Origin: a virus
Lineage: Duplodnaviria > Heunggongvirae > Uroviricota > Caudoviricetes
DNA length: 11,454 nt
IMG/VR virus record: IMGVR_UViG_2585427747_000005
Direction: 5' to 3' (one strand)
A model generated the notes under the pieces. The model made no database searches and was not told the DNA's origin. It worked only from the letters and a program-made list of their open reading frames with translations. How positions within the stretch are numbered: position 1 is the first letter of the stretch; the number at the start of each line of letters is the position of its first letter. The translations under genes and the position numbers were made by a program. Positions 1 to 11,454 of the stretch are shown in pieces.

Positions 1-1218
1 ATGAACAAACTGAGCGATACCTTGCTAAGGAAACTTCATGGTAAGCCAGCGGAGAAAAACACGTTTTATAGTGATGGCGGAAACCTGAGCGTGAAATATT
101 TAACATCAGGGAAATTGACCTGGTATTTCACATACAGGGCCGGAACGGGAAGGGAGACACGACCCGAACGCATTAAGCTGGGAAGTTATCCTGATCTGAG
201 CCTGAAAGCAGCCAGGGAAAAAGCCGCACAGTGTCGCACATGGCTGGCTGAGGGGAAAAATCCACGTCATGAGATGAATTACACCGTACAGGAAGCGTTA
301 AAGCCCGTAACGGTTGGCGATGCGCTCACCTACTGGCTTGAGTATTACGTAAAGGAAAACCGCGTGGATTATATCGCCCTGAAAAGGCGACTTAATAATC
401 ACGTAATACAGCAGATTGGTGCTATGCCGCTGGATAAATGCGAGCTACGGCACTGGCTGGCCTGTTTTGACCAGGTGGCAAAGCGAACGCCTGTTACTGC
501 CGGATTCGTGCTACAGGCGTGCAAACAGGCGCTTAAGTTCTGCCGTAGGCGGCGCTATGCAATCAGCAACGTTCTGGACGATCTGAACGTTGCGGACGTT
601 GGGAAAAAACCGGATATAAGCGAACGTGTCTTAAGTAACAAAGAACTTGGCGAATTATTGCAGGCACTGGACAAAAAAATATTCTCCCCTTACTACGTCG
701 CGTTAATCCGCCTCCTGATTGTCTTCGGAGCCAGAACGGTAGAACTGAGGTTATCGGAGATCGGGGAGTGGGATTTTACGGAAATGCTATGGACCGTTCC
801 GAAGGAGCACAGCAAAACGAAGGTCGCAATATTCCGGCCCATACCGGAAGCGATCCTGCCGTTCGTCACGCAGCTGGTGGAGCAGAACAGGCACACGGGC
901 TTATTGCTGGGGGAAGTGAAACAGGAGGCCAGCGTATCGCAGTATGGAAGATTAGCGCACTGGAGGCTTAATCACCCTCACTGGTCACTGCATGACATCC
1001 GGCGCACCTTTACAACCATGCTGAACGATTTAGGCGTTGATCCGCATGTCGTGGAGCAGCTTACAGGCCACCAGATGCCAGGAATGCAGCGAGTTTATAA
1101 TCATTCCCGTTATCTGGATGCGAAACGCAATGCGCTGGATATGTGGACGGAGCGGTTAGGGATACTGGCGGGAAAACATGAAAACGTAACCACGCTACCC
1201 GTAGCCAGAAGAAAATAA
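1..1218 (+). CDS. int: Tyrosine site-specific integrase, P4/CP4-57 family
   Basis: 405-aa ORF starting with ATG at 1; N-terminal arm-binding-type region (SDGGNLSVKY..WYFTYR); C-terminal catalytic motifs HDIRRT and VYNHSRY (HxxR and the catalytic Tyr). Confidence 0.9.
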   Translation: MNKLSDTLLRKLHGKPAEKNTFYSDGGNLSVKYLTSGKLTWYFTYRAGTGRETRPERIKLGSYPDLSLKAAREKAAQCRTWLAEGKNPRHEMNYTVQEALKPVTVGDALTYWLEYYVKENRVDYIALKRRLNNHVIQQIGAMPLDKCELRHWLACFDQVAKRTPVTAGFVLQACKQALKFCRRRRYAISNVLDDLNVADVGKKPDISERVLSNKELGELLQALDKKIFSPYYVALIRLLIVFGARTVELRLSEIGEWDFTEMLWTVPKEHSKTKVAIFRPIPEAILPFVTQLVEQNRHTGLLLGEVKQEASVSQYGRLAHWRLNHPHWSLHDIRRTFTTMLNDLGVDPHVVEQLTGHQMPGMQRVYNHSRYLDAKRNALDMWTERLGILAGKHENVTTLPVARRK

Positions 1219-2272: not shown

Positions 2273-2452
2273 TTACTCTGGTTCTTTGGCCTTGCGCCGC
2301 TGGCGATATTCAACTTCTCGTTTTAATGCCGCAGTAACAAATTGCCCCGTACTTTCGCCAGGCATTTTTACCGCCTCAACATTGTTCATAACTTCATGCG
2401 GAACCCTTGCCGCAACGGTTTGTGATTTTGCGTTTACCGCTTTTGTCGCCAT
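2273..2452 (-). CDS. Ribbon-helix-helix (Arc/CopG-like) DNA-binding protein, candidate repressor
   Basis: 59-aa ORF (MATKAVNAKSQTVAARVPHEVMNNVEAVKMPGESTGQFVTAALKREVEYRQRRKAKEPE), below the track cutoff; GAGGGG Shine-Dalgarno 8 nt before the ATG at 2452; strand-helix-helix pattern; adjacent to the operator triplet. Confidence 0.55.
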   Translation of the reverse strand: MATKAVNAKSQTVAARVPHEVMNNVEAVKMPGESTGQFVTAALKREVEYRQRRKAKEPE

Positions 2453-3309: not shown

Positions 3310-3539
3310 GTCAGGAAATCACACTACAACAGGCAGCAGAACGCGCCCACCAAATCGAAGTTATTTGCGCACTGGCAGAGGATTACCCTGGCATGATGAC
3401 CGACAGCGAATCAGGGGCAATCATCGGCTTACTTAAACGCCTTAGCGGTGAGGTCTGCGTATTCCTGAGCGATGAACAGGAAAGAAGAACGCTTATTTCT
3501 AACGAAAAAAAATGCGGAGGGGTACACCATGTGCAATAA
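3306..3539 (+). CDS. Hypothetical small protein
   Basis: 77-aa ORF; ATG overlaps the upstream stop (ATGA), suggesting translational coupling; no recognisable motif. Confidence 0.45.
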   Translation: MSQEITLQQAAERAHQIEVICALAEDYPGMMTDSESGAIIGLLKRLSGEVCVFLSDEQERRTLISNEKKCGGVHHVQ

Positions 3540-3750
3540 CATCCGTCCGGACGCAGCAGCCGCCGCGCTCACTACGCTGATGCACGCGCTTATCGATATT
3601 GAATGCACTGCAGAGCTTGCGCAGGGAGAAGAACAGAAAGACCGGACACAGTTCGCCCTGGAATGTATCCGATACATCGCAACGCGGTCGCTGAATGAAG
3701 CTAAAAATATTCTTGTTGCTGATTGTGAAAATGGGGGGGGTTATGCGTGA
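3529..3750 (+). CDS. Hypothetical small protein
   Basis: 73 aa from the ATG at 3529 with a GGAGGGG Shine-Dalgarno (the track ORF begins at 3472); no recognisable motif. Confidence 0.4.
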   Translation: MCNNIRPDAAAAALTTLMHALIDIECTAELAQGEEQKDRTQFALECIRYIATRSLNEAKNILVADCENGGGYA

Positions 3751-3976
3751 TGATCGTTTTAATTCCCTGAAACAGGAATTTTCCGGCGTTCCTGATGATG
3801 CGGCTGATGCGCTTTCGTCAATGCCAGAACTTATTAGAGCGGCTTTTTTCTTACTTTCCACGAGAGAATATAAATCAACGGGGCTTGATGTACTGAATAT
3901 CGCCGCCGATTATGCGGAATATGTGGCAGAGGCGCGTTATAGAAGAAAATTTCCTGAGGATGTAAGCCATGCGTGA
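3743..3976 (+). CDS. Hypothetical small acidic protein
   Basis: 77 aa from the ATG at 3743 after a G-rich Shine-Dalgarno; start embedded in ATGCGTGA overlapping the upstream stop. Confidence 0.45.
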   Translation: MRDDRFNSLKQEFSGVPDDAADALSSMPELIRAAFFLLSTREYKSTGLDVLNIAADYAEYVAEARYRRKFPEDVSHA

Positions 3977-4207: not shown

Positions 4208-4507
4208 ATGAAACTTAAATATTCTGGCTTAACTGCCAGTGGCAACACTCACCCTAAATTTACGCGCGGCGATATTTACCGCGACCAGTACGGCGGCACG
4301 GTAATGATTAAGGGCGTGGAAGAACGGCGCGTAACCTACCGCCGTGAAGGTTACGAATATGATTGCGTGATGCCTGTTTATCAGTTCCGGCGTGATTTTT
4401 CTCTGGTACAGACCGCGCCGCATAACGTGTCCACCAGCAACGCCAGGGCACGGGCAAACATCCAGAAGCTGAAAACCATGATTAACGGATTCAGGGGTAA
4501 AAAATGA
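4208..4507 (+). CDS. Hypothetical protein
   Basis: 99-aa ORF, GGAGA Shine-Dalgarno; stop overlaps the start of the replication gene (ATGA). Confidence 0.5.
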   Translation: MKLKYSGLTASGNTHPKFTRGDIYRDQYGGTVMIKGVEERRVTYRREGYEYDCVMPVYQFRRDFSLVQTAPHNVSTSNARARANIQKLKTMINGFRGKK

Positions 4508-6258
4508 AACTGGCACCGAACGTAAAACAGCAGTCACGCGGCATAAAACACAAAGAAACAGAAGTCATTATTTTTGCGGGTAGTGATGCCTGGTCACACG
4601 CAAAACAATGGCAGGAACATGACGCGCGTATGGCCGGAGATAATGAGCCTCCTGTGTGGCTTGGGGAGCAGCAGTTATCCGAACTGGATAAGCTGCAAAT
4701 TGTGCCGGAAGGCAGAAAATCCGTGCGCATATTCAGGGCCGGATATCTTGCGCCAGTAATGATAAAGGCGATTGGTCAGAAGCTGGCGGCGGCAGGCGTA
4801 CAGGATGCAAATTTTTACCCTGATGGTATGCACGGTCAGAAGGTGGAGAACTGGCGCGAATATCTGGCCCGTGAGCGCCAGAATCTTTCTGATGGTCTGG
4901 TCATTGAGCTTCCGGTAAAGCAAAAGGCGCAACTTTCGCAGATGGCGGACAGTGAGCGCGCGCAGCTGCTTGCCGATCGCTTTGATGGCGTTTGCGTACA
5001 TCCTGAAAGTGAAATCGTTCACGTATGGCGCGGCGGGGGATGGTGTCCGGTCAGCACAATGGAACTTAGCCGCGAAATGGTGGCGATCTATTCAGAGCAC
5101 AGGGCCACTTTCAGCAAGCGCGTAATCAATAACGCCGTGGAAGCGTTAAAAGTTATTGCCGAACCAATGGGCGAGCCGTCCGGCGATTTGTTGCCGTTCG
5201 CCAATGGTGCGCTTGACCTGAAAACGGGGGAATTTTCCCCGCACACGCCGGAGAACTGGATCACCACGCACAACGGCATTGAGTACACGCCACCAGCACC
5301 AGGGGAGAACATCCGCGATAACGCGCCAAACTTTCATAAATGGCTTGAGCACGCAGCCGGAAAAGACCCGCGCAAGATGATGCGTATATGTGCCGCGCTG
5401 TACATGATTATGGCGAACCGGTACGACTGGCAGATGTTTATTGAGGCCACCGGAGACGGCGGGAGCGGTAAAAGTACATTCACACACATAGCCAGCCTTC
5501 TGGCAGGGAAACAGAACACGGTAAGCGCTGAAATGACATCGCTTGATGATGCTGGTGGACGTGCGCAGGTTGTCGGGAGTCGTCTTATCGTCCTGGCTGA
5601 CCAGCCGAAATATACAGGCGAAGGAACGGGCATCAAGAAAATCACGGGCGGTGACCCCGTGGAAATTAACCCGAAATACGAAAAGCGTTTCACGGCGGTA
5701 ATCAGGGCGGTGGTGCTGGCGACCAACAATAACCCGATGATATTCACCGAACGGGCCGGAGGTGTGGCACGTCGTCGCGTGATTTTCCGTTTCGACAATA
5801 TCGTCAGTGAGGCCGAAAAAGACAGGGAGCTACCGGAAAAGATCGCGGCTGAAATCCCTGTCATTATCCGCCGATTGCTGGCGAACTTTACCGACCCTGA
5901 GAAGGCACGGGCTTTACTACTGGAACAGCGTGACGGTGATGAAGCTCTGGCAATAAAGCAACAGACGGATCCGGTTATTGAGTTTTGCCAGTTCCTGAAT
6001 TTTCTGGAGGAAGCGCGCGGCCTGATGATGGGGGGCGGTGGCGATTCAGTGAAGTACACGACCAGGAACAGCCTTTACCGCGTCTATCTGGCGTTTATGG
6101 CATACGCAGGCAGGAGCAAACCGCTAAACGTAAATGACTTTGGCAAGGCTATGAAGCCAGCCGCGAAAGTTTACGGACATGAATATATTACGCGGAAAGT
6201 TAAGGGAGTAACGCAGACTAACGCAATAACAACAGACGATTGCGACGCGTTTTTATAA
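4504..6258 (+). CDS. Replication initiator: P4-alpha-family primase C-terminal domain / SF3-type NTPase
   Basis: 584 aa; Walker A GDGGSGKST, Walker B-like RLIVLADQ, D5_N-like segment LPFANGALDLKTGEF; no obvious TOPRIM primase motif seen in the N-terminal third. Confidence 0.85.
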   Translation: MKLAPNVKQQSRGIKHKETEVIIFAGSDAWSHAKQWQEHDARMAGDNEPPVWLGEQQLSELDKLQIVPEGRKSVRIFRAGYLAPVMIKAIGQKLAAAGVQDANFYPDGMHGQKVENWREYLARERQNLSDGLVIELPVKQKAQLSQMADSERAQLLADRFDGVCVHPESEIVHVWRGGGWCPVSTMELSREMVAIYSEHRATFSKRVINNAVEALKVIAEPMGEPSGDLLPFANGALDLKTGEFSPHTPENWITTHNGIEYTPPAPGENIRDNAPNFHKWLEHAAGKDPRKMMRICAALYMIMANRYDWQMFIEATGDGGSGKSTFTHIASLLAGKQNTVSAEMTSLDDAGGRAQVVGSRLIVLADQPKYTGEGTGIKKITGGDPVEINPKYEKRFTAVIRAVVLATNNNPMIFTERAGGVARRRVIFRFDNIVSEAEKDRELPEKIAAEIPVIIRRLLANFTDPEKARALLLEQRDGDEALAIKQQTDPVIEFCQFLNFLEEARGLMMGGGGDSVKYTTRNSLYRVYLAFMAYAGRSKPLNVNDFGKAMKPAAKVYGHEYITRKVKGVTQTNAITTDDCDAFL

Positions 6259-6270
6259 TTTTTTGCAATG

Positions 6271-6498
6271 GCTGTCTACCCTGTCTACCTGAGTAAAGAA
6301 AAATACATTTAATTCAGTATATTAACTTAGGTAGGCAGCCTTTTTTCACTGTCTACCTACTATCTACCCTCTCTACCTGATTTTACCTGAATCAGACAGG
6401 GAGGTAGATACGGGGTAGATAGTGGATAAAAGCACTCTACCCCGCTGAAAGCCGCGCCATTACTGGCATGAGAGCCAGTAAGGTAGATAAGGTAGACA
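6271..6498. repeat. Origin of replication: iteron array (TGTCTACC and variants, both orientations)
   Basis: TGTCTACC at 6273, 6282 and 6350; ATCTACC at 6362; CTCTACC at 6371 and 6434; inverted GGTAGATA/GGTAGACA at 6403, 6414, 6482 and 6491; immediately downstream of the replication gene. Confidence 0.7.
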
Positions 6499-7638: not shown

Positions 7639-7845
7639 ATGGCTGAAGAGAAAAAAGGCGGTGTTTCGGTGTACATAAGCCCCGAAATCGTGGAGGTGCT
7701 CAAGCAGCGCCACAAAAAAAACTATGAGGCTGGCGTGGCGGCTGGACTGGATCCGCTGATGACGCCGGAGCCGTCGATAGGTTCACTTGTACGCTCTTAT
7801 TTACTTGCGGCGCTTGGGATGCATAAAAATTATGGGGGTGAATAA
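7639..7845 (+). CDS. Hypothetical small protein upstream of the capsid gene
   Basis: 68-aa ORF; stop overlaps the capsid start (TAATG); possible strand-helix start (VSVYISPEIVEVLKQ). Confidence 0.5.
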   Translation: MAEEKKGGVSVYISPEIVEVLKQRHKKNYEAGVAAGLDPLMTPEPSIGSLVRSYLLAALGMHKNYGGE

Positions 7846-8900
7846 TGGCAGGCAAAGCAACGGCACTTAACACTCACCAGCTTTTTGCGTACCTGAATCG
7901 CGGGGATATTGCGGAATTTAAATTTAGTCCGCTGTTTACCACGCTGTTTTTCCCGAAAGTAGCGACATTCAACACCCAAAACATCATGCTGGATAACCTG
8001 GACACCGAAGAAGTCACTATGTCAGCGTTTTGCTCGCCTATGGTTGGTAGCCAGGTACAGCGCGATAAAGGGTACGAAACCAGCACGATTAAACCTGGCT
8101 ACATGAAGCCAAAGCACGAAATCGATCCAACAAAAACCATCATGCGCATGGCTGGAGAAGATCCGGCACAGCTTAACGACCCAACCTATCGCCGTATGCG
8201 CCTGATTACTGGCAACATGCGCCGCCAGGTAAACGCTATTAAAGCGCGTGTTGAATGGCTGGCGGTAAATGCGGTAACGACCGGAAAAAACATCATTGAG
8301 GGCGAAGGCATAGAACGCTATGAAATCGACTGGAAGATGCCGGAAAACAACATCATAGAGCAGGCCAAAGGCCGTAAATGGTCCGAGCAGGACAAAGAAA
8401 CCCACGATCCAATCTATGATATCGAGCTTTATGCGGATCAGGGCAATTGCCCCGCAAACGTCATGATTATGGGCGCTGAGGTATGGCGCACGTTACGCAG
8501 CTTTAAAAAATTCCGCGAACTGTACGATCTTTCCCGTGGTTCAGAATCCGCCGCAGAACTGGCCTGTAAAAACCTGGGCGAAGTGGTGAGCTTTAAAGGC
8601 TATCTGGGCGATATTGCCCTTATCGTCTATTCCGGCAAATACGCCGACAGCGACGGCACCGAAAAACATTTCCTTGAGCCTGATTTGCTGGTCTTGGGCA
8701 ACACCAACAATAAAGGGCTGGTTGCTTATGGTGCGATTATGGATCAGGAAGCGGTAAGAACGGGCGCAACGCAAAACATGTACTACCCGAAAAACTGGAT
8801 TGAGGACGGCGATCCGGCGATTGAGTACGTGCAGACGCACAGCGCACCGCAGCCGGTGCCGGCAGACATTCGCAAATTTGTTACCGTCAAAATTGGTTAA
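7845..8900 (+). CDS. Major capsid protein, lambda gpE family
   Basis: 351 aa; FKFSPLF..LFF, PGYMKPKHE, EDPAQLNDPTYRRMR, YPKNWIEDGDPAIEY..SAP match remembered lambda gpE segments (FKFDPLF..LFF, PGYVKPKHE, EDPQNLADPAYRRRR, YPKNWVTTGDPAREF..SAP). Confidence 0.9.
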   Translation: MAGKATALNTHQLFAYLNRGDIAEFKFSPLFTTLFFPKVATFNTQNIMLDNLDTEEVTMSAFCSPMVGSQVQRDKGYETSTIKPGYMKPKHEIDPTKTIMRMAGEDPAQLNDPTYRRMRLITGNMRRQVNAIKARVEWLAVNAVTTGKNIIEGEGIERYEIDWKMPENNIIEQAKGRKWSEQDKETHDPIYDIELYADQGNCPANVMIMGAEVWRTLRSFKKFRELYDLSRGSESAAELACKNLGEVVSFKGYLGDIALIVYSGKYADSDGTEKHFLEPDLLVLGNTNNKGLVAYGAIMDQEAVRTGATQNMYYPKNWIEDGDPAIEYVQTHSAPQPVPADIRKFVTVKIG

Positions 8901-8911
8901 CGGGGGATTCT

Positions 8912-9247
8912 ATGAACACTCCATACATTGAGTTATTTGCAGGCAGTCAGCAGGTATCCACGACGCTGGTACATTTTGCCGCTGATGCTGGCGTCATTCA
9001 GGAATTTACCCCGCTGATGCTGGCGGACAATGGCGAGTTTAAGCCGTGGGATGGTCAGGCGTCCGGAAAGGCTGTTTATCTGACTTCGTACCCCGTGGAC
9101 ACGTCAAAGCAGAAATCAGCACAGTGCTACAAGACGGGGATCTTTAATATCGCCGCCGTGAACTGGCCCGAGAGCGTCGACACCGATGCGAAAAAATGCG
9201 CCGCCTTTGCGGGTTCTGGCGTATCCGTTCAGCCGCTGGCCCGATAA
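8912..9247 (+). CDS. Head decoration protein, lambda gpD family
   Basis: 111 aa; TPLMLADNG..WDGQASGKAV...YKTGIFN..WPE...KKCAAFAGSGVSV parallels lambda gpD TPLMLDTSS..WDGTTDGAAV...YKSGTFR..WPE...KKRTAFAGTAISIV. Confidence 0.85.
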   Translation: MNTPYIELFAGSQQVSTTLVHFAADAGVIQEFTPLMLADNGEFKPWDGQASGKAVYLTSYPVDTSKQKSAQCYKTGIFNIAAVNWPESVDTDAKKCAAFAGSGVSVQPLAR

Positions 9248-9702: not shown

Positions 9703-9770
9703 ACGGGTCCTTTCCGGCATATGGACCCGTTACGGGGCGGCGACCTCGCGGGTTTTCGCTATTTATGACG
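9703..9770 (+). other. cos: Lambda-type cos site (cosQ-like segment plus cosN GGGCGGCGACCT at 9735-9746)
   Basis: ACGGGTCCTTTCCGG...CCGTTACG|GGGCGGCGACCT|CGCGGGTTTTCGCTATTTATGA matches remembered lambda cos flanks, diverging only in the cosQ-cosN spacer. Confidence 0.8.
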
Positions 9771-9835
9771 TTTTTCCGTGAAGGTGACACCACCACCACT
9801 TGATTAATATTTAACCATGCAGTTAAGGTAACATT

Positions 9836-10276
9836 ATGATTGATAAAGCTTGTTTTGTAAGTCAGCAGGAAATAGCTGAACATTTCAAGGTTAACAGAAC
9901 CACTATTCGCGCATGGACCAAACAGGGGATGCCGTATCTTAATGCGGATCGCGGAAAGTCTGGCGGTTATCACATCGGGCATACATTGCTTTGGTCTTCA
10001 GGTAAAAGCCGTCTTGAGGCCATCAGATATCACGTAGAAACCAGTGCGCTGGAAAAAATTATGTTTGCCAGGCTGCTTTCATCTGAGCGTGACGAGTACT
10101 CCAGTGAAGAAACAGAACATAGATTTGATGAAGGTTTACAGATTTACGGCTACTCACCGGAAGAAGTGAGCAAAGCGCGAAATAAAATGGCCGGCTTTCT
10201 GGCTGGGTGGCGTCATGCCGTAAGCGTTCGCCGTGCCAGCATGGAACAATCAGTCGTTACAGAACAGCAAAGTTAA
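9836..10276 (+). CDS. Terminase small subunit homolog (lambda Nu1-like wHTH); Rpp-like packaging-redirection candidate
   Basis: 146 aa; VSQQEIAEHFKVNRTTIRAWTKQGMPYL parallels lambda Nu1 KKQLADIFGASIRTIQNWQEQGMPVL; no large terminase gene in the window. Confidence 0.8.
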   Translation: MIDKACFVSQQEIAEHFKVNRTTIRAWTKQGMPYLNADRGKSGGYHIGHTLLWSSGKSRLEAIRYHVETSALEKIMFARLLSSERDEYSSEETEHRFDEGLQIYGYSPEEVSKARNKMAGFLAGWRHAVSVRRASMEQSVVTEQQS

Positions 10277-10306
10277 AAATCACTTTCTGTTACGCCATCA
10301 AATACG

Positions 10307-10460
10307 CAATACAACAACCACGTATTTTTTTAAAACTATTTGATTCAATTAGCATTTTTTTATTTTTAGCATCAAAAAAACACTATCAGGTTGTTGTATT
10401 GCTCTTTATTTTTACTTAGTTATCAAATGGATATGACAAACAATTAAACAACAACCTCCC
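10307..10460. repeat. cosB-like array: three ACAACAACC/GGTTGTTGT sites in an AT-rich segment
   Basis: CAATACAACAACC (10307-10319) and its exact inverted copy GGTTGTTGTATTG (10391-10403); third ACAACAACC at 10449-10457; lies between the terS-like stop and the inverted cosN. Confidence 0.45.
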
Positions 10461-10469
10461 TCTAAAAAA

Positions 10470-10537
10470 GCTCATAAATAGCGAAAAACCGCGAGGTCGC
10501 CGCCCCGTAACGGGCCATAATTCCAGGAAGGACCCGA
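10470..10537 (-). other. cos: Second cos copy in inverted orientation (cosN GGGCGGCGACCT on the minus strand, 10494-10505)
   Basis: Reverse complement reads CGGGTCCTTCCTGG...CCGTTACG|GGGCGGCGACCT|CGCGGTTTTTCGCTATTTATGAG, an imperfect inverted repeat of 9703-9770. Confidence 0.7.
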
Positions 10538-10569: not shown

Positions 10570-10851
10570 ATGACAGAAGCCGAACTACTGGGATTAATCC
10601 GCCGCGTTACCGGAATCAGCCAGCAGCATGACGAACAGGCCACGCAGCCGGACAGCGTGACCGCCGAAAATTACGCGCGTGTGGTTGCTGAGGTGATGCG
10701 CCGTGATGGTATCCAGCTTAATGATGTGGATATGCGCAACATACGGATCCGCGTTCTTGAAATGCTGGCCTACAATCGCCGCGTGGCACTGTATCGGGAA
10801 ACGGAGAAAATTACGTACCACTGGAAGAAGCCGGAGCGGTTACGGCGTTAA
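10570..10851 (+). CDS. Hypothetical protein
   Basis: 93-aa ORF, G-rich Shine-Dalgarno; no recognisable motif. Confidence 0.5.
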   Translation: MTEAELLGLIRRVTGISQQHDEQATQPDSVTAENYARVVAEVMRRDGIQLNDVDMRNIRIRVLEMLAYNRRVALYRETEKITYHWKKPERLRR

Positions 10852-10867
10852 CGAGTAGCGACATACC

Positions 10868-10902
10868 GTGACGGAGAGTGACAACCAGTGACACGCCGTG
10901 AC
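10868..10902. repeat. Four GTGAC motifs at exact 10-bp spacing
   Basis: GTGAC at 10868, 10878, 10888 and 10898 (cGTGACg, aGTGACa, aGTGACa, cGTGACa). Confidence 0.5.
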
Positions 10903-11221
10903 AAAAGACGGTTTAACCGTTAATTAAAAATTGACGGGATTTTATGCTTTCCGGACGACGTGACCAACGTCATTTTTTAGCGAAAAGTTCTGATTAAGGT
11001 CATTGTCTGAATGGTCATAATGACCACTCCTACAAAACAGGTAAAGCCCACCAGCCTGATTAACAGTTAACCGGAAAAAAAATCCGGTAGCCCCGTTATG
11101 GGGATCCCCATATCAACATTAACGCCCCTCATGAATTAGCGCGCTTCCCCCTGGAAAGATGACCCGCCTGTATATTTCTTGTGTCTATTTGTTCCACGTT
11201 GTTTCATACAGTGCACCGAAC

Positions 11222-11243
11222 GGTGTAGTCACTGGTGTAGTCA
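11222..11243. repeat. Tandem 10-bp direct repeat GGTGTAGTCA x2 near the right junction
   Basis: GGTGTAGTCA at 11222-11231 and 11234-11243; adjacent palindromes CACCG-aa-CGGTG (11213-11224) and TGGGGATCCCCA (11099-11110). Confidence 0.4.
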
Positions 11244-11307
11244 TTTTGCGATTTATGGCACTTTTTGTAGTGCAAATCATTTAATTAAATCAATGCGTTA
11301 AGTGAAA

Positions 11308-11454
11308 TTAGTTATATATAACAGCAATAAATAATGCGAGAATAAACGGCACGATGATCTCGGCGGCAAAACGGATACCGCAGAGAATAATGACCAGCAT
11401 TCCCAACATAATGACGATTTTTAGGCCATTGAGCGTGATGATCGGCTTTGCCAT
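11308..11454 (-). pseudogene. tqsA: 5' fragment of an AI-2E family transporter gene (tqsA/ydgG-like), interrupted after about 46 codons
   Basis: Minus-strand translation [45 protein letters not shown] matches my recollection of the E. coli TqsA N-terminus, then diverges (IYN, stop at 11308-11310). Confidence 0.55.

Follow-up and report, generated by a model that had tools for sequence, protein, structure and literature searches.

A PICI inserted at a 9-bp attachment core splits the tqsA gene of Escherichia coli near its 5' end

The closest described relatives of the locus analysed here are two E. coli phage-inducible chromosomal islands (PICIs), EcCI042 and EcCIK1516, for which Table S1 of an earlier survey gives the att core as ATAACAGCA and the att gene as tqsA (Fillol-Salom 2018; PMC6092414). 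EcCI042 is the 11 kb island of E. coli 042 (FN554766.1, 1832521-1843554). The gene also figures in two other studies. Bobay et al. (2013) included tqsA in their list of core genes disrupted by prophage integration, and a later study with TIGER described three elements, Eco33.11.tqsA, Eco282.16.tqsA and Eco557.15.tqsA, which disrupt the UPF0118 domain without restoring it, and named tqsA among 19 new candidate cases of regulated gene integrity (Mageeney 2020; PMC7192596). Between them, these studies (2013, 2018, 2020) have thus put in print the site in tqsA, the core and the fact that the gene is disrupted. A literature search on ydgG together with integrase returned nothing on the tqsA site, and yielded only a paper on the sister island CP-933C.

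We analysed a stretch of 11,454 nt (the window; IMG/VR virus record IMGVR_UViG_2585427747_000005), which begins at the ATG of an integrase gene and ends at the ATG of tqsA. The top bit score against the window, 21,130, was reached by seven complete E. coli genomes, with three others scoring slightly less. A base-by-base comparison with one carrier, VTB96933v (L008), revealed 4 mismatches over the 11,454 nt. The final 285 nt of the window align with positions 1832384-1832668 of E. coli 042 with 100% identity, which places the core at 1832512-1832520 of that genome, directly adjoining the published start of EcCI042. We conclude that the window contains the attR core of an integrated 11.5-kb phage satellite, a PICI of the EcCICFT073 family and of the same kind as EcCI042 and EcCIK1516. 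The island has in common with these two islands the host species, the att gene, the core and a size of 11-11.4 kb, but is a sequence variant of them, and the 2018 table names the site without discussing the broken gene.

The starting point for our analysis was an original prediction, made from the letters of the window alone, that the minus-strand frame at its right end matches the N-terminus of TqsA for about 46 codons before it runs into a stop at 11308-11310. Translation confirmed this down to the coordinates. Read from 11454 to 11308, the frame encodes TqsA residues 1-46, followed by Tyr-Asn and the stop codon at 11308-11310, and the 48-aa product matches residues 1-48 of PDB 7NB6 chain A ('AI-2 transport protein TqsA') with E=1.9e-20. 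Residues 1-46 are identical; position 47 is Tyr here and Leu in TqsA, and the agreement at Asn48 is a coincidence. At the DNA level, the 137 chromosomal bases at 11318-11454 are 100% identical to the 5' end of tqsA in K-12 MG1655 and in thousands of further E. coli genomes; position 11318 is the exact edge of this homology.

Seen from the right edge, the junction comprises three parts. Codons 1-43 of the chromosomal tqsA gene occupy 11327-11454 on the minus strand (start codon 11454-11452), as assigned by nucleotide identity and the match to PDB 7NB6. They are followed at 11318-11326 by the attR copy of the 9-bp core ATAACAGCA, which corresponds to tqsA codons 44-46 (GCT GTT AT on the minus strand). 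From there on the truncated frame runs in island sequence (11308-11317, minus strand), which supplies the last base of the Ile46 codon (11317), Tyr47, Asn48 and the TAA at 11308-11310. The core had been placed at 11300-11325; the actual core is 9 bp long and is located at 11318-11326. The 48-aa tqsA stub gave no Pfam match, and in near-identical genomes PGAP labels the tqsA 5' stretch a pseudogene ('pheromone autoinducer 2 transporter, incomplete, missing C-terminus'). Beyond the right end of the window, and still joined to the 5' fragment, is the native promoter region of tqsA.

The left junction is outside the window, and was read from public genomes that harbor near-identical elements, E. 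coli VTB96933v (L008) and SW4848 (L001), rather than from the source genome. It had been proposed that the rest of tqsA and a direct repeat of the core should lie beyond the left end, and in both genomes they do. The remaining 298 tqsA codons are found to the left of int, between the island and pntB, directly abutting a copy of the core, and carry the PGAP label of a pseudogene 'missing N-terminus'. ATAACAGCA occurs once per junction, at 188 bp to the left of window position 1 and at 11318-11326, and the distance between the two copies is 11,513 bp. In genomes that lack the island, the attL probe matches as far as the final base of the left core copy and the attR probe matches from the first base of the right one onward, and ATAACAGCA is the sole stretch common to attL, attR, attB, and attP. 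Since the edges of homology fall exactly at ATAACAGCA, the nonamer is all of the sequence over which attP and attB are identical, and it must be within these 9 bp that strands are exchanged.

When the two flanks were joined at the core in silico, they gave an uninterrupted tqsA gene of 344 codons. Over its 400 nt, the attB rebuilt in this way agrees with the natural locus of strain 1190 at 100% identity, and it is intact in 5,167/5,423 genomes. The attR and attL junctions were detected in 246 and 247, respectively, of 5,426 complete E. coli genomes (~4.5%). These carriers are diverse in both strain and island cargo: ~44 genomes cover at least 80% of the island described here, compared with ~247 that have the same junctions but partly different cargo.

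With a size of 11,513 bp, the island falls within the ~8-15 kb expected of a PICI. As is also expected of this class, the integrase is located at one end, by attL with a specific att site, and the AlpA gene is followed by a primase/replication module. The order of genes is int, AlpA, icd-like genes, primase, iteron-like repeats, SSB, capsid E, decoration D, a Nu3-like fragment, and a terS-like HTH gene. The AlpA-family HTH protein is encoded at 1584-1772 on the plus strand (Pfam Phage_AlpA, 5.4e-17); proteins of this family are regulators or excision factors typical of Gram-negative PICIs and P4-like satellites. The primase/replication protein (4504-6258, plus strand) contains D5_N, DUF5906, and Pox_D5 domains, and right after its gene, at ~6271-6377, there is a family of iteron-like CTGTCTACC repeats and variants which, judged from their sequence and position, probably constitute the replication origin of the island.

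The virion-related genes are limited to those for capsid E, decoration D, the Nu3-like fragment, and the terS-like HTH protein, and no tail genes, lysis genes, or full packaging set were found in the island by Pfam, PHROG, or PGAP annotation. The homologue of the lambda E-type major capsid protein lies at 7845-8900 (plus strand; Pfam Phage_cap_E, 4e-50) and that of the lambda D-type head decoration protein at 8912-9247 (plus strand; Pfam HDPD, 6e-18). EcCICFT073 also encodes capsid and head decoration proteins (c1499 and c1500; Fillol-Salom 2018). The packaging region (9735-10505) consists of two lambda-type cos cores, GGGCGGCGACCT, placed around the gene for the small HTH protein (9836-10276), which has weak similarity to the terminase small subunit (PHROG 57, 3e-8). 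Both cos cores are exact and they are inverted relative to one another (9735-9746, plus strand; 10494-10505, minus strand); two copies were reached in 2/200 shuffles. The supplement of Fillol-Salom 2018 contains the label 'CFT073 cos.1', and two cos copies may be a trait of the family. On the basis of int, alpA, the primase, the capsid and decoration homologues, and cos, the gene content fits that of a Gram-negative PICI.

Several smaller features of the island were recorded along the way. Just downstream of a 93-aa ORF (10570-10851), near the right end of the island, GTGAC occurs four times at an exact 10-bp period (ccGTGACggagaGTGACaaccaGTGACacgccGTGACaaaag, 10868-10902), in an arrangement that looks like a phased protein-binding array. 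Near window position 3740, the window and SW4848 differ in length by 1 nt (window ~3472-3976 versus 8529-8975 in L001), such that the window and VTB96933v have two ORFs of ~73-77 aa (PGAP, VTB96933v) and SW4848 has a single ORF of 149 aa; one of the two versions has a frameshift in this small island gene. Two small island ORFs had no match in Pfam. A 341-codon open frame at 1830-2855 spans a truncated icd-like pseudogene called by PGAP, a YlcI/YnfO gene on the opposite strand (at about 2273-2452, minus strand), and a short Icd-like gene. A PHROG family match ('transcriptional repressor') was limited to the last 90 residues of this frame, which is probably not a real gene.

The integrase gene (1-1218, plus strand) encodes a tyrosine integrase of 405 aa from the ATG at which the window begins, and the start called by PGAP is 12 nt upstream of that ATG. 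The protein matches PHROG 1 (integrase, 4e-70) and has a P4-type domain architecture, with Arm-DNA-bind_3 (PF13356, 1.3e-18), Phage_integrase (PF00589, 1.1e-15), and a central Phage_int_M domain (PF22022) whose score of 6e-4 is under its gathering cutoff. Candidates for the R-K-H-R-H-Y residues, picked by eye in the translated sequence, are R245 (GAR245TVE), K272/K274, H331 and R334 (H331DIR334R), H357 (TGH357), and Y366/Y371.

Both ends of the island carry repeats of the kind such an integrase would be predicted to bind. Two tandem copies of GGTGTAGTCA are located in the right arm, ~75 bp inside the right end (11222-11231 and 11234-11243), and two further copies are ~130 bp inside the left end, with all four in the same orientation. 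Exact GGTGTAGTCA is therefore present in four copies, two per island end, and nowhere else in the island. When one mismatch was allowed, there were five matches, the fifth of which is outside the island, and 0/100 shuffles reached five. The right-hand copies belong to a 77-nt segment of the P' arm (11171-11247, plus strand) that is 77% identical to a segment in the stretch that separates int from the left core copy. An alignment of attL from four integrase clades revealed that the P arm, including the GGTGTAGTCA sites, is kept up to the core, and that the core and the host side differ. Given the domain and the pattern of repeats, we infer that the GGTGTAGTCA repeats are arm-type sites for the Arm-DNA-bind_3 domain.

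Two further observations concern the attachment sites. In a search by eye for core-type inverted repeats, a 12-nt palindrome, GTTATATATAAC, was seen to overlap the core in attR and attP, and attB has GTTA-N4-TAAC. In addition, Table S1 of Fillol-Salom 2018 gives CGGTGTAGTTAATGGTGTAGTTAATT as the 'att site core' of EcCIDI14; in our alignment this is the conserved tandem arm-type repeat. For each of the three sister integrase clades that we aligned (L002/L004/L005), the repeat is ~130 bp inside attL, and the tqsA clade has the variant CGGTGTAGTCACTGGTGTAGTCAC (L001 4941-4965; window 11222-11243). The published EcCIDI14 'core' is probably an arm repeat and not a crossover site, and the same is perhaps true of the published TTTGTAGTTATACG... 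core of the yejM islands.

Integrase copies with at least 94% nucleotide identity to the one in the window were located at tqsA wherever they were inspected. A clade at 91-93% identity, from O157:H7 and Shigella flexneri (CP-933C/EcCICFT073 type), is found between roxA (ycfD) and phoQ; a clade at 82% adjoins an MFS transporter gene that neighbours ygaZ; and a clade at 79% is between cspD and clpS. None of these sites is a tRNA gene, and the target in tqsA is codons 44-46. For P4-type integrases, insertion at a tRNA or tmRNA 3' end is a typical trait, though not one that defines the family. The cores published for roxA-phoQ (GGACATATTT) and cspD-clpS (ATGATAGTTAT) (Fillol-Salom 2018, Table S1) both appear in our attL alignment of the clades. 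Use of non-tRNA sites is the rule for this family of satellite integrases. The suggestion that tqsA would be an unusual target for a P4-type integrase was therefore correct with regard to the architecture of the enzyme, but not with regard to the unusualness of the site, as three sister clades are also at non-tRNA sites. A scan of GTDB species-representative genomes with the integrase returned one relative only, in Shigella flexneri at the roxA-phoQ site, and so provides no evidence of tqsA-site islands outside E. coli.

Comparison with the better-known relatives helps to define what is particular to the tqsA site. EcCICFT073 and CP-933C (O-island 51 of O157:H7) have the same int, alpA, icd-like, primase, capsid E, decoration D, and cos functions, an integrase that is 91-93% identical at the DNA level, and a P arm with tandem arm-type sites that is homologous up to the core. 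In contrast to the island described here, they are inserted between roxA (ycfD) and phoQ at the core GGACATATTT, in an intergenic or gene-end position, and leave conserved coding regions uncut. The TIGER elements in E. coli tqsA, at 11-16 kb, likewise cut the UPF0118/AI-2E domain such that the profile match begins at position 32; the study that found them was purely computational and did not identify them as PICIs, and 'regulated' has the standing of a hypothesis in that study and in ours. Satellite P4 resembles the island in its Arm-DNA-bind_3 tyrosine integrase, AlpA-family protein, D5-type primase, and satellite lifestyle. P4 inserts at the 3' end of a tRNA-Leu gene, which is preserved, whereas the island in the window cuts a protein gene near its 5' end, has no recognisable sid, psu, or delta, and has lambda-type capsid, decoration, and cos instead. 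Lastly, elements that split mlrA, comK, or sigK share with it site-specific insertion into a conserved coding region and scarless restoration of the gene on excision. For these, a phenotypic switch has been demonstrated experimentally, whereas the tqsA case is known from sequence.

If the nonamer is the crossover site, then the excised island should have a joint in which the right and left ends flank a single copy of it, i.e., ...AGTTATAT-ATAACAGCA-TTTTATCATT.... A search of IMG/VR for this predicted attP joint identified one contig, IMGVR_UViG_3300045988_152974 (L006), which has it exactly as predicted. The contig is 11,098 nt long, consists of a related island free of host DNA, and overlaps itself at its termini by 119 nt, which is the signature of a circular or concatemeric assembly. 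The presence of a single 9-bp copy between the island ends in this excised-form contig indicates that the 9 bp belongs to attP. The break in the contig falls precisely on the final base of the att core, which is consistent with the coexistence of integrated and excised forms in the sample. In principle, an attP-bearing contig could also originate from a tandem integrated array instead of a free circle.

These observations suggest the following scheme. The island Int, aided by the arm-type sites on both sides, would recombine attP with the identical 9 bp ATAACAGCA in tqsA codons 44-46. Integration leaves a promoter-proximal stub of 48 codons (residues 1-46 plus Tyr-Asn-stop) and, on the far side next to int, a promoterless and start-less remainder of 298 codons. 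Int and AlpA would later excise the island precisely, presumably upon induction of a helper phage, so as to give back an intact tqsA and a circular island with attP. The roles assigned to the two proteins, and the helper-phage dependence of the tqsA-site island, are putative; in experiments, excision and helper dependence have been demonstrated only for its relative EcCICFT073 (Fillol-Salom 2018, Fig. S4 legend; PMC6092414). For helper-dependent induction, packaging and transfer of the tqsA-site island, the two lambda-type cos cores and the host-free, circular-type contig in a viral collection are indirect indications.

The original prediction had left open whether integration disrupts tqsA or supplies it with a replacement 5' end at the other junction. 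Of these two options, the data support disruption and refute replacement. The minus-strand frame that leads into the tqsA remainder reads ...AKNTK-stop-stop-NAVILNPLVQHM..., where the two stops are TGA TAA, and translation of all frames across the left junction established that the other two are likewise closed. Because in-frame stops precede the remainder, no replacement 5' end is provided and tqsA is disrupted. At the left junction of the near-identical elements, neither a start codon nor a hydrophobic segment is fused to the remainder, which matches positions 32-326 only of the 327-position AI-2E_transport profile. A crude scan of both strands of the ~190 bp from the core to int, which amounts to a weak negative, found no sigma-70-like promoter.

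According to cryo-EM of TqsA, the pentamer makes its main cytoplasmic contact through H1 (Thr7-Phe29), and H2 extends from Ala31 to Trp57. Insertion after codon 46 consequently takes H1 off the remainder and cuts H2 in two. From the sequence and the published structure, carriers are predicted to be tqsA-null through loss of TqsA function. Formally, read-through transcription might still permit a restart at GTG (Val51) or ATG (Met54), for which neither a Shine-Dalgarno sequence nor a promoter was seen.

We consider it very probable that the right junction is the attR core of a tqsA-splitting PICI that supplies no 5' end and whose effect is reversible by excision. It is, on the other hand, a general rule that integrative elements in protein genes preserve the gene (Mageeney 2020), and elements in icd and in tRNA genes duplicate the gene ends. 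One could therefore imagine a surrogate tqsA 5' end, with a promoter and ~46 codons, at the int-proximal end of the island that keeps the exporter working. A candidate might be seen in the 60-codon 'hypothetical protein' that PGAP calls to the left of int, and which happens to be in the tqsA frame. However, the consecutive TGA and TAA codons part this ORF from the tqsA remainder; Pfam gave no match for it, nothing in it resembles TqsA residues 1-46, and it shares sequence with both the arm-type integrase sites and the start of int. The truncated profile match, the pseudogene call made by PGAP for the remainder in every carrier inspected, and the TIGER domain-disruption test, which scored tqsA as 'disrupted without restoration' (Mageeney 2020), all argue in the same direction, and make preservation of the gene very improbable. 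We give hardly any credence to a reading in which the 9-bp repeat is a transposase target-site duplication, or the product of an off-target event by an integrase with its real site elsewhere. Nine bp is a common length for a target duplication, and Bobay et al. (2013) suggested that sparsely occupied sites in protein genes may be secondary sites. Yet the identical junction recurs in ~247 genomes, the island encodes no transposase, and the excised-form contig has the 9 bp once, between the island ends; moreover, every integrase of the clade that was inspected is at tqsA, and the cores of the sister clades match their own targets.

A different issue is whether the split gene serves a purpose, such that excision restores tqsA and alters AI-2 export, biofilm, or motility to the benefit of the host or the island. 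In favor of such regulated gene integrity, a dedicated integrase clade is at tqsA wherever it was inspected, the cut is inside a conserved domain, excision would be scarless, and tqsA has been named among the 19 new candidates (Mageeney 2020). The locus also fits one part of the Mageeney 2020 definition, in that a tight integrase clade cuts a conserved domain at one position and leaves it unrestored. Nevertheless, excision of a PICI normally goes with lethal growth of the helper phage, from which survivors would rarely benefit, and the island is present in only ~4.5% of genomes. Furthermore, a simple deletion of tqsA in at least one genome suggests that the gene is dispensable and a harmless landing site. 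The genome in question is that of E. coli CFSAN004176 (L010; NZ_CP014583.1, 364937-371118), in which an internal deletion leaves two short tqsA fragments and there is no island; the gene is thus also lost by other routes, which suggests dispensability in some lineages. On balance, we regard regulated gene integrity as unlikely. It is similarly doubtful that the PICI uses tqsA as a true switch, in which AI-2 export would be abolished in the integrated state and restored by excision in a surviving subpopulation, a reading that goes further than the computational 'candidate' status given in Mageeney 2020. Were it true, one would expect higher intracellular AI-2 and altered biofilm, motility, or prophage induction while the island is integrated, and carriage of the satellite would be coupled to quorum sensing and possibly to the likelihood of helper-phage induction.

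As the site, the core, and the disruption are all in print, the tqsA-splitting PICI described here carries little weight as a discovery. Its value is for annotation: where PGAP lists two tqsA pseudogene fragments, as it does in ~4.5% of complete E. coli genomes, these are a single gene cut by a PICI into its attL and attR halves, and in any interpretation of AI-2 or biofilm phenotypes the carriers should be presumed likely tqsA-null. For the satellites themselves, the integrases of P4-type architecture in E. coli satellites form a set of close clades that have kept their arm sites and changed their core, and have in this way come to occupy different non-tRNA loci.
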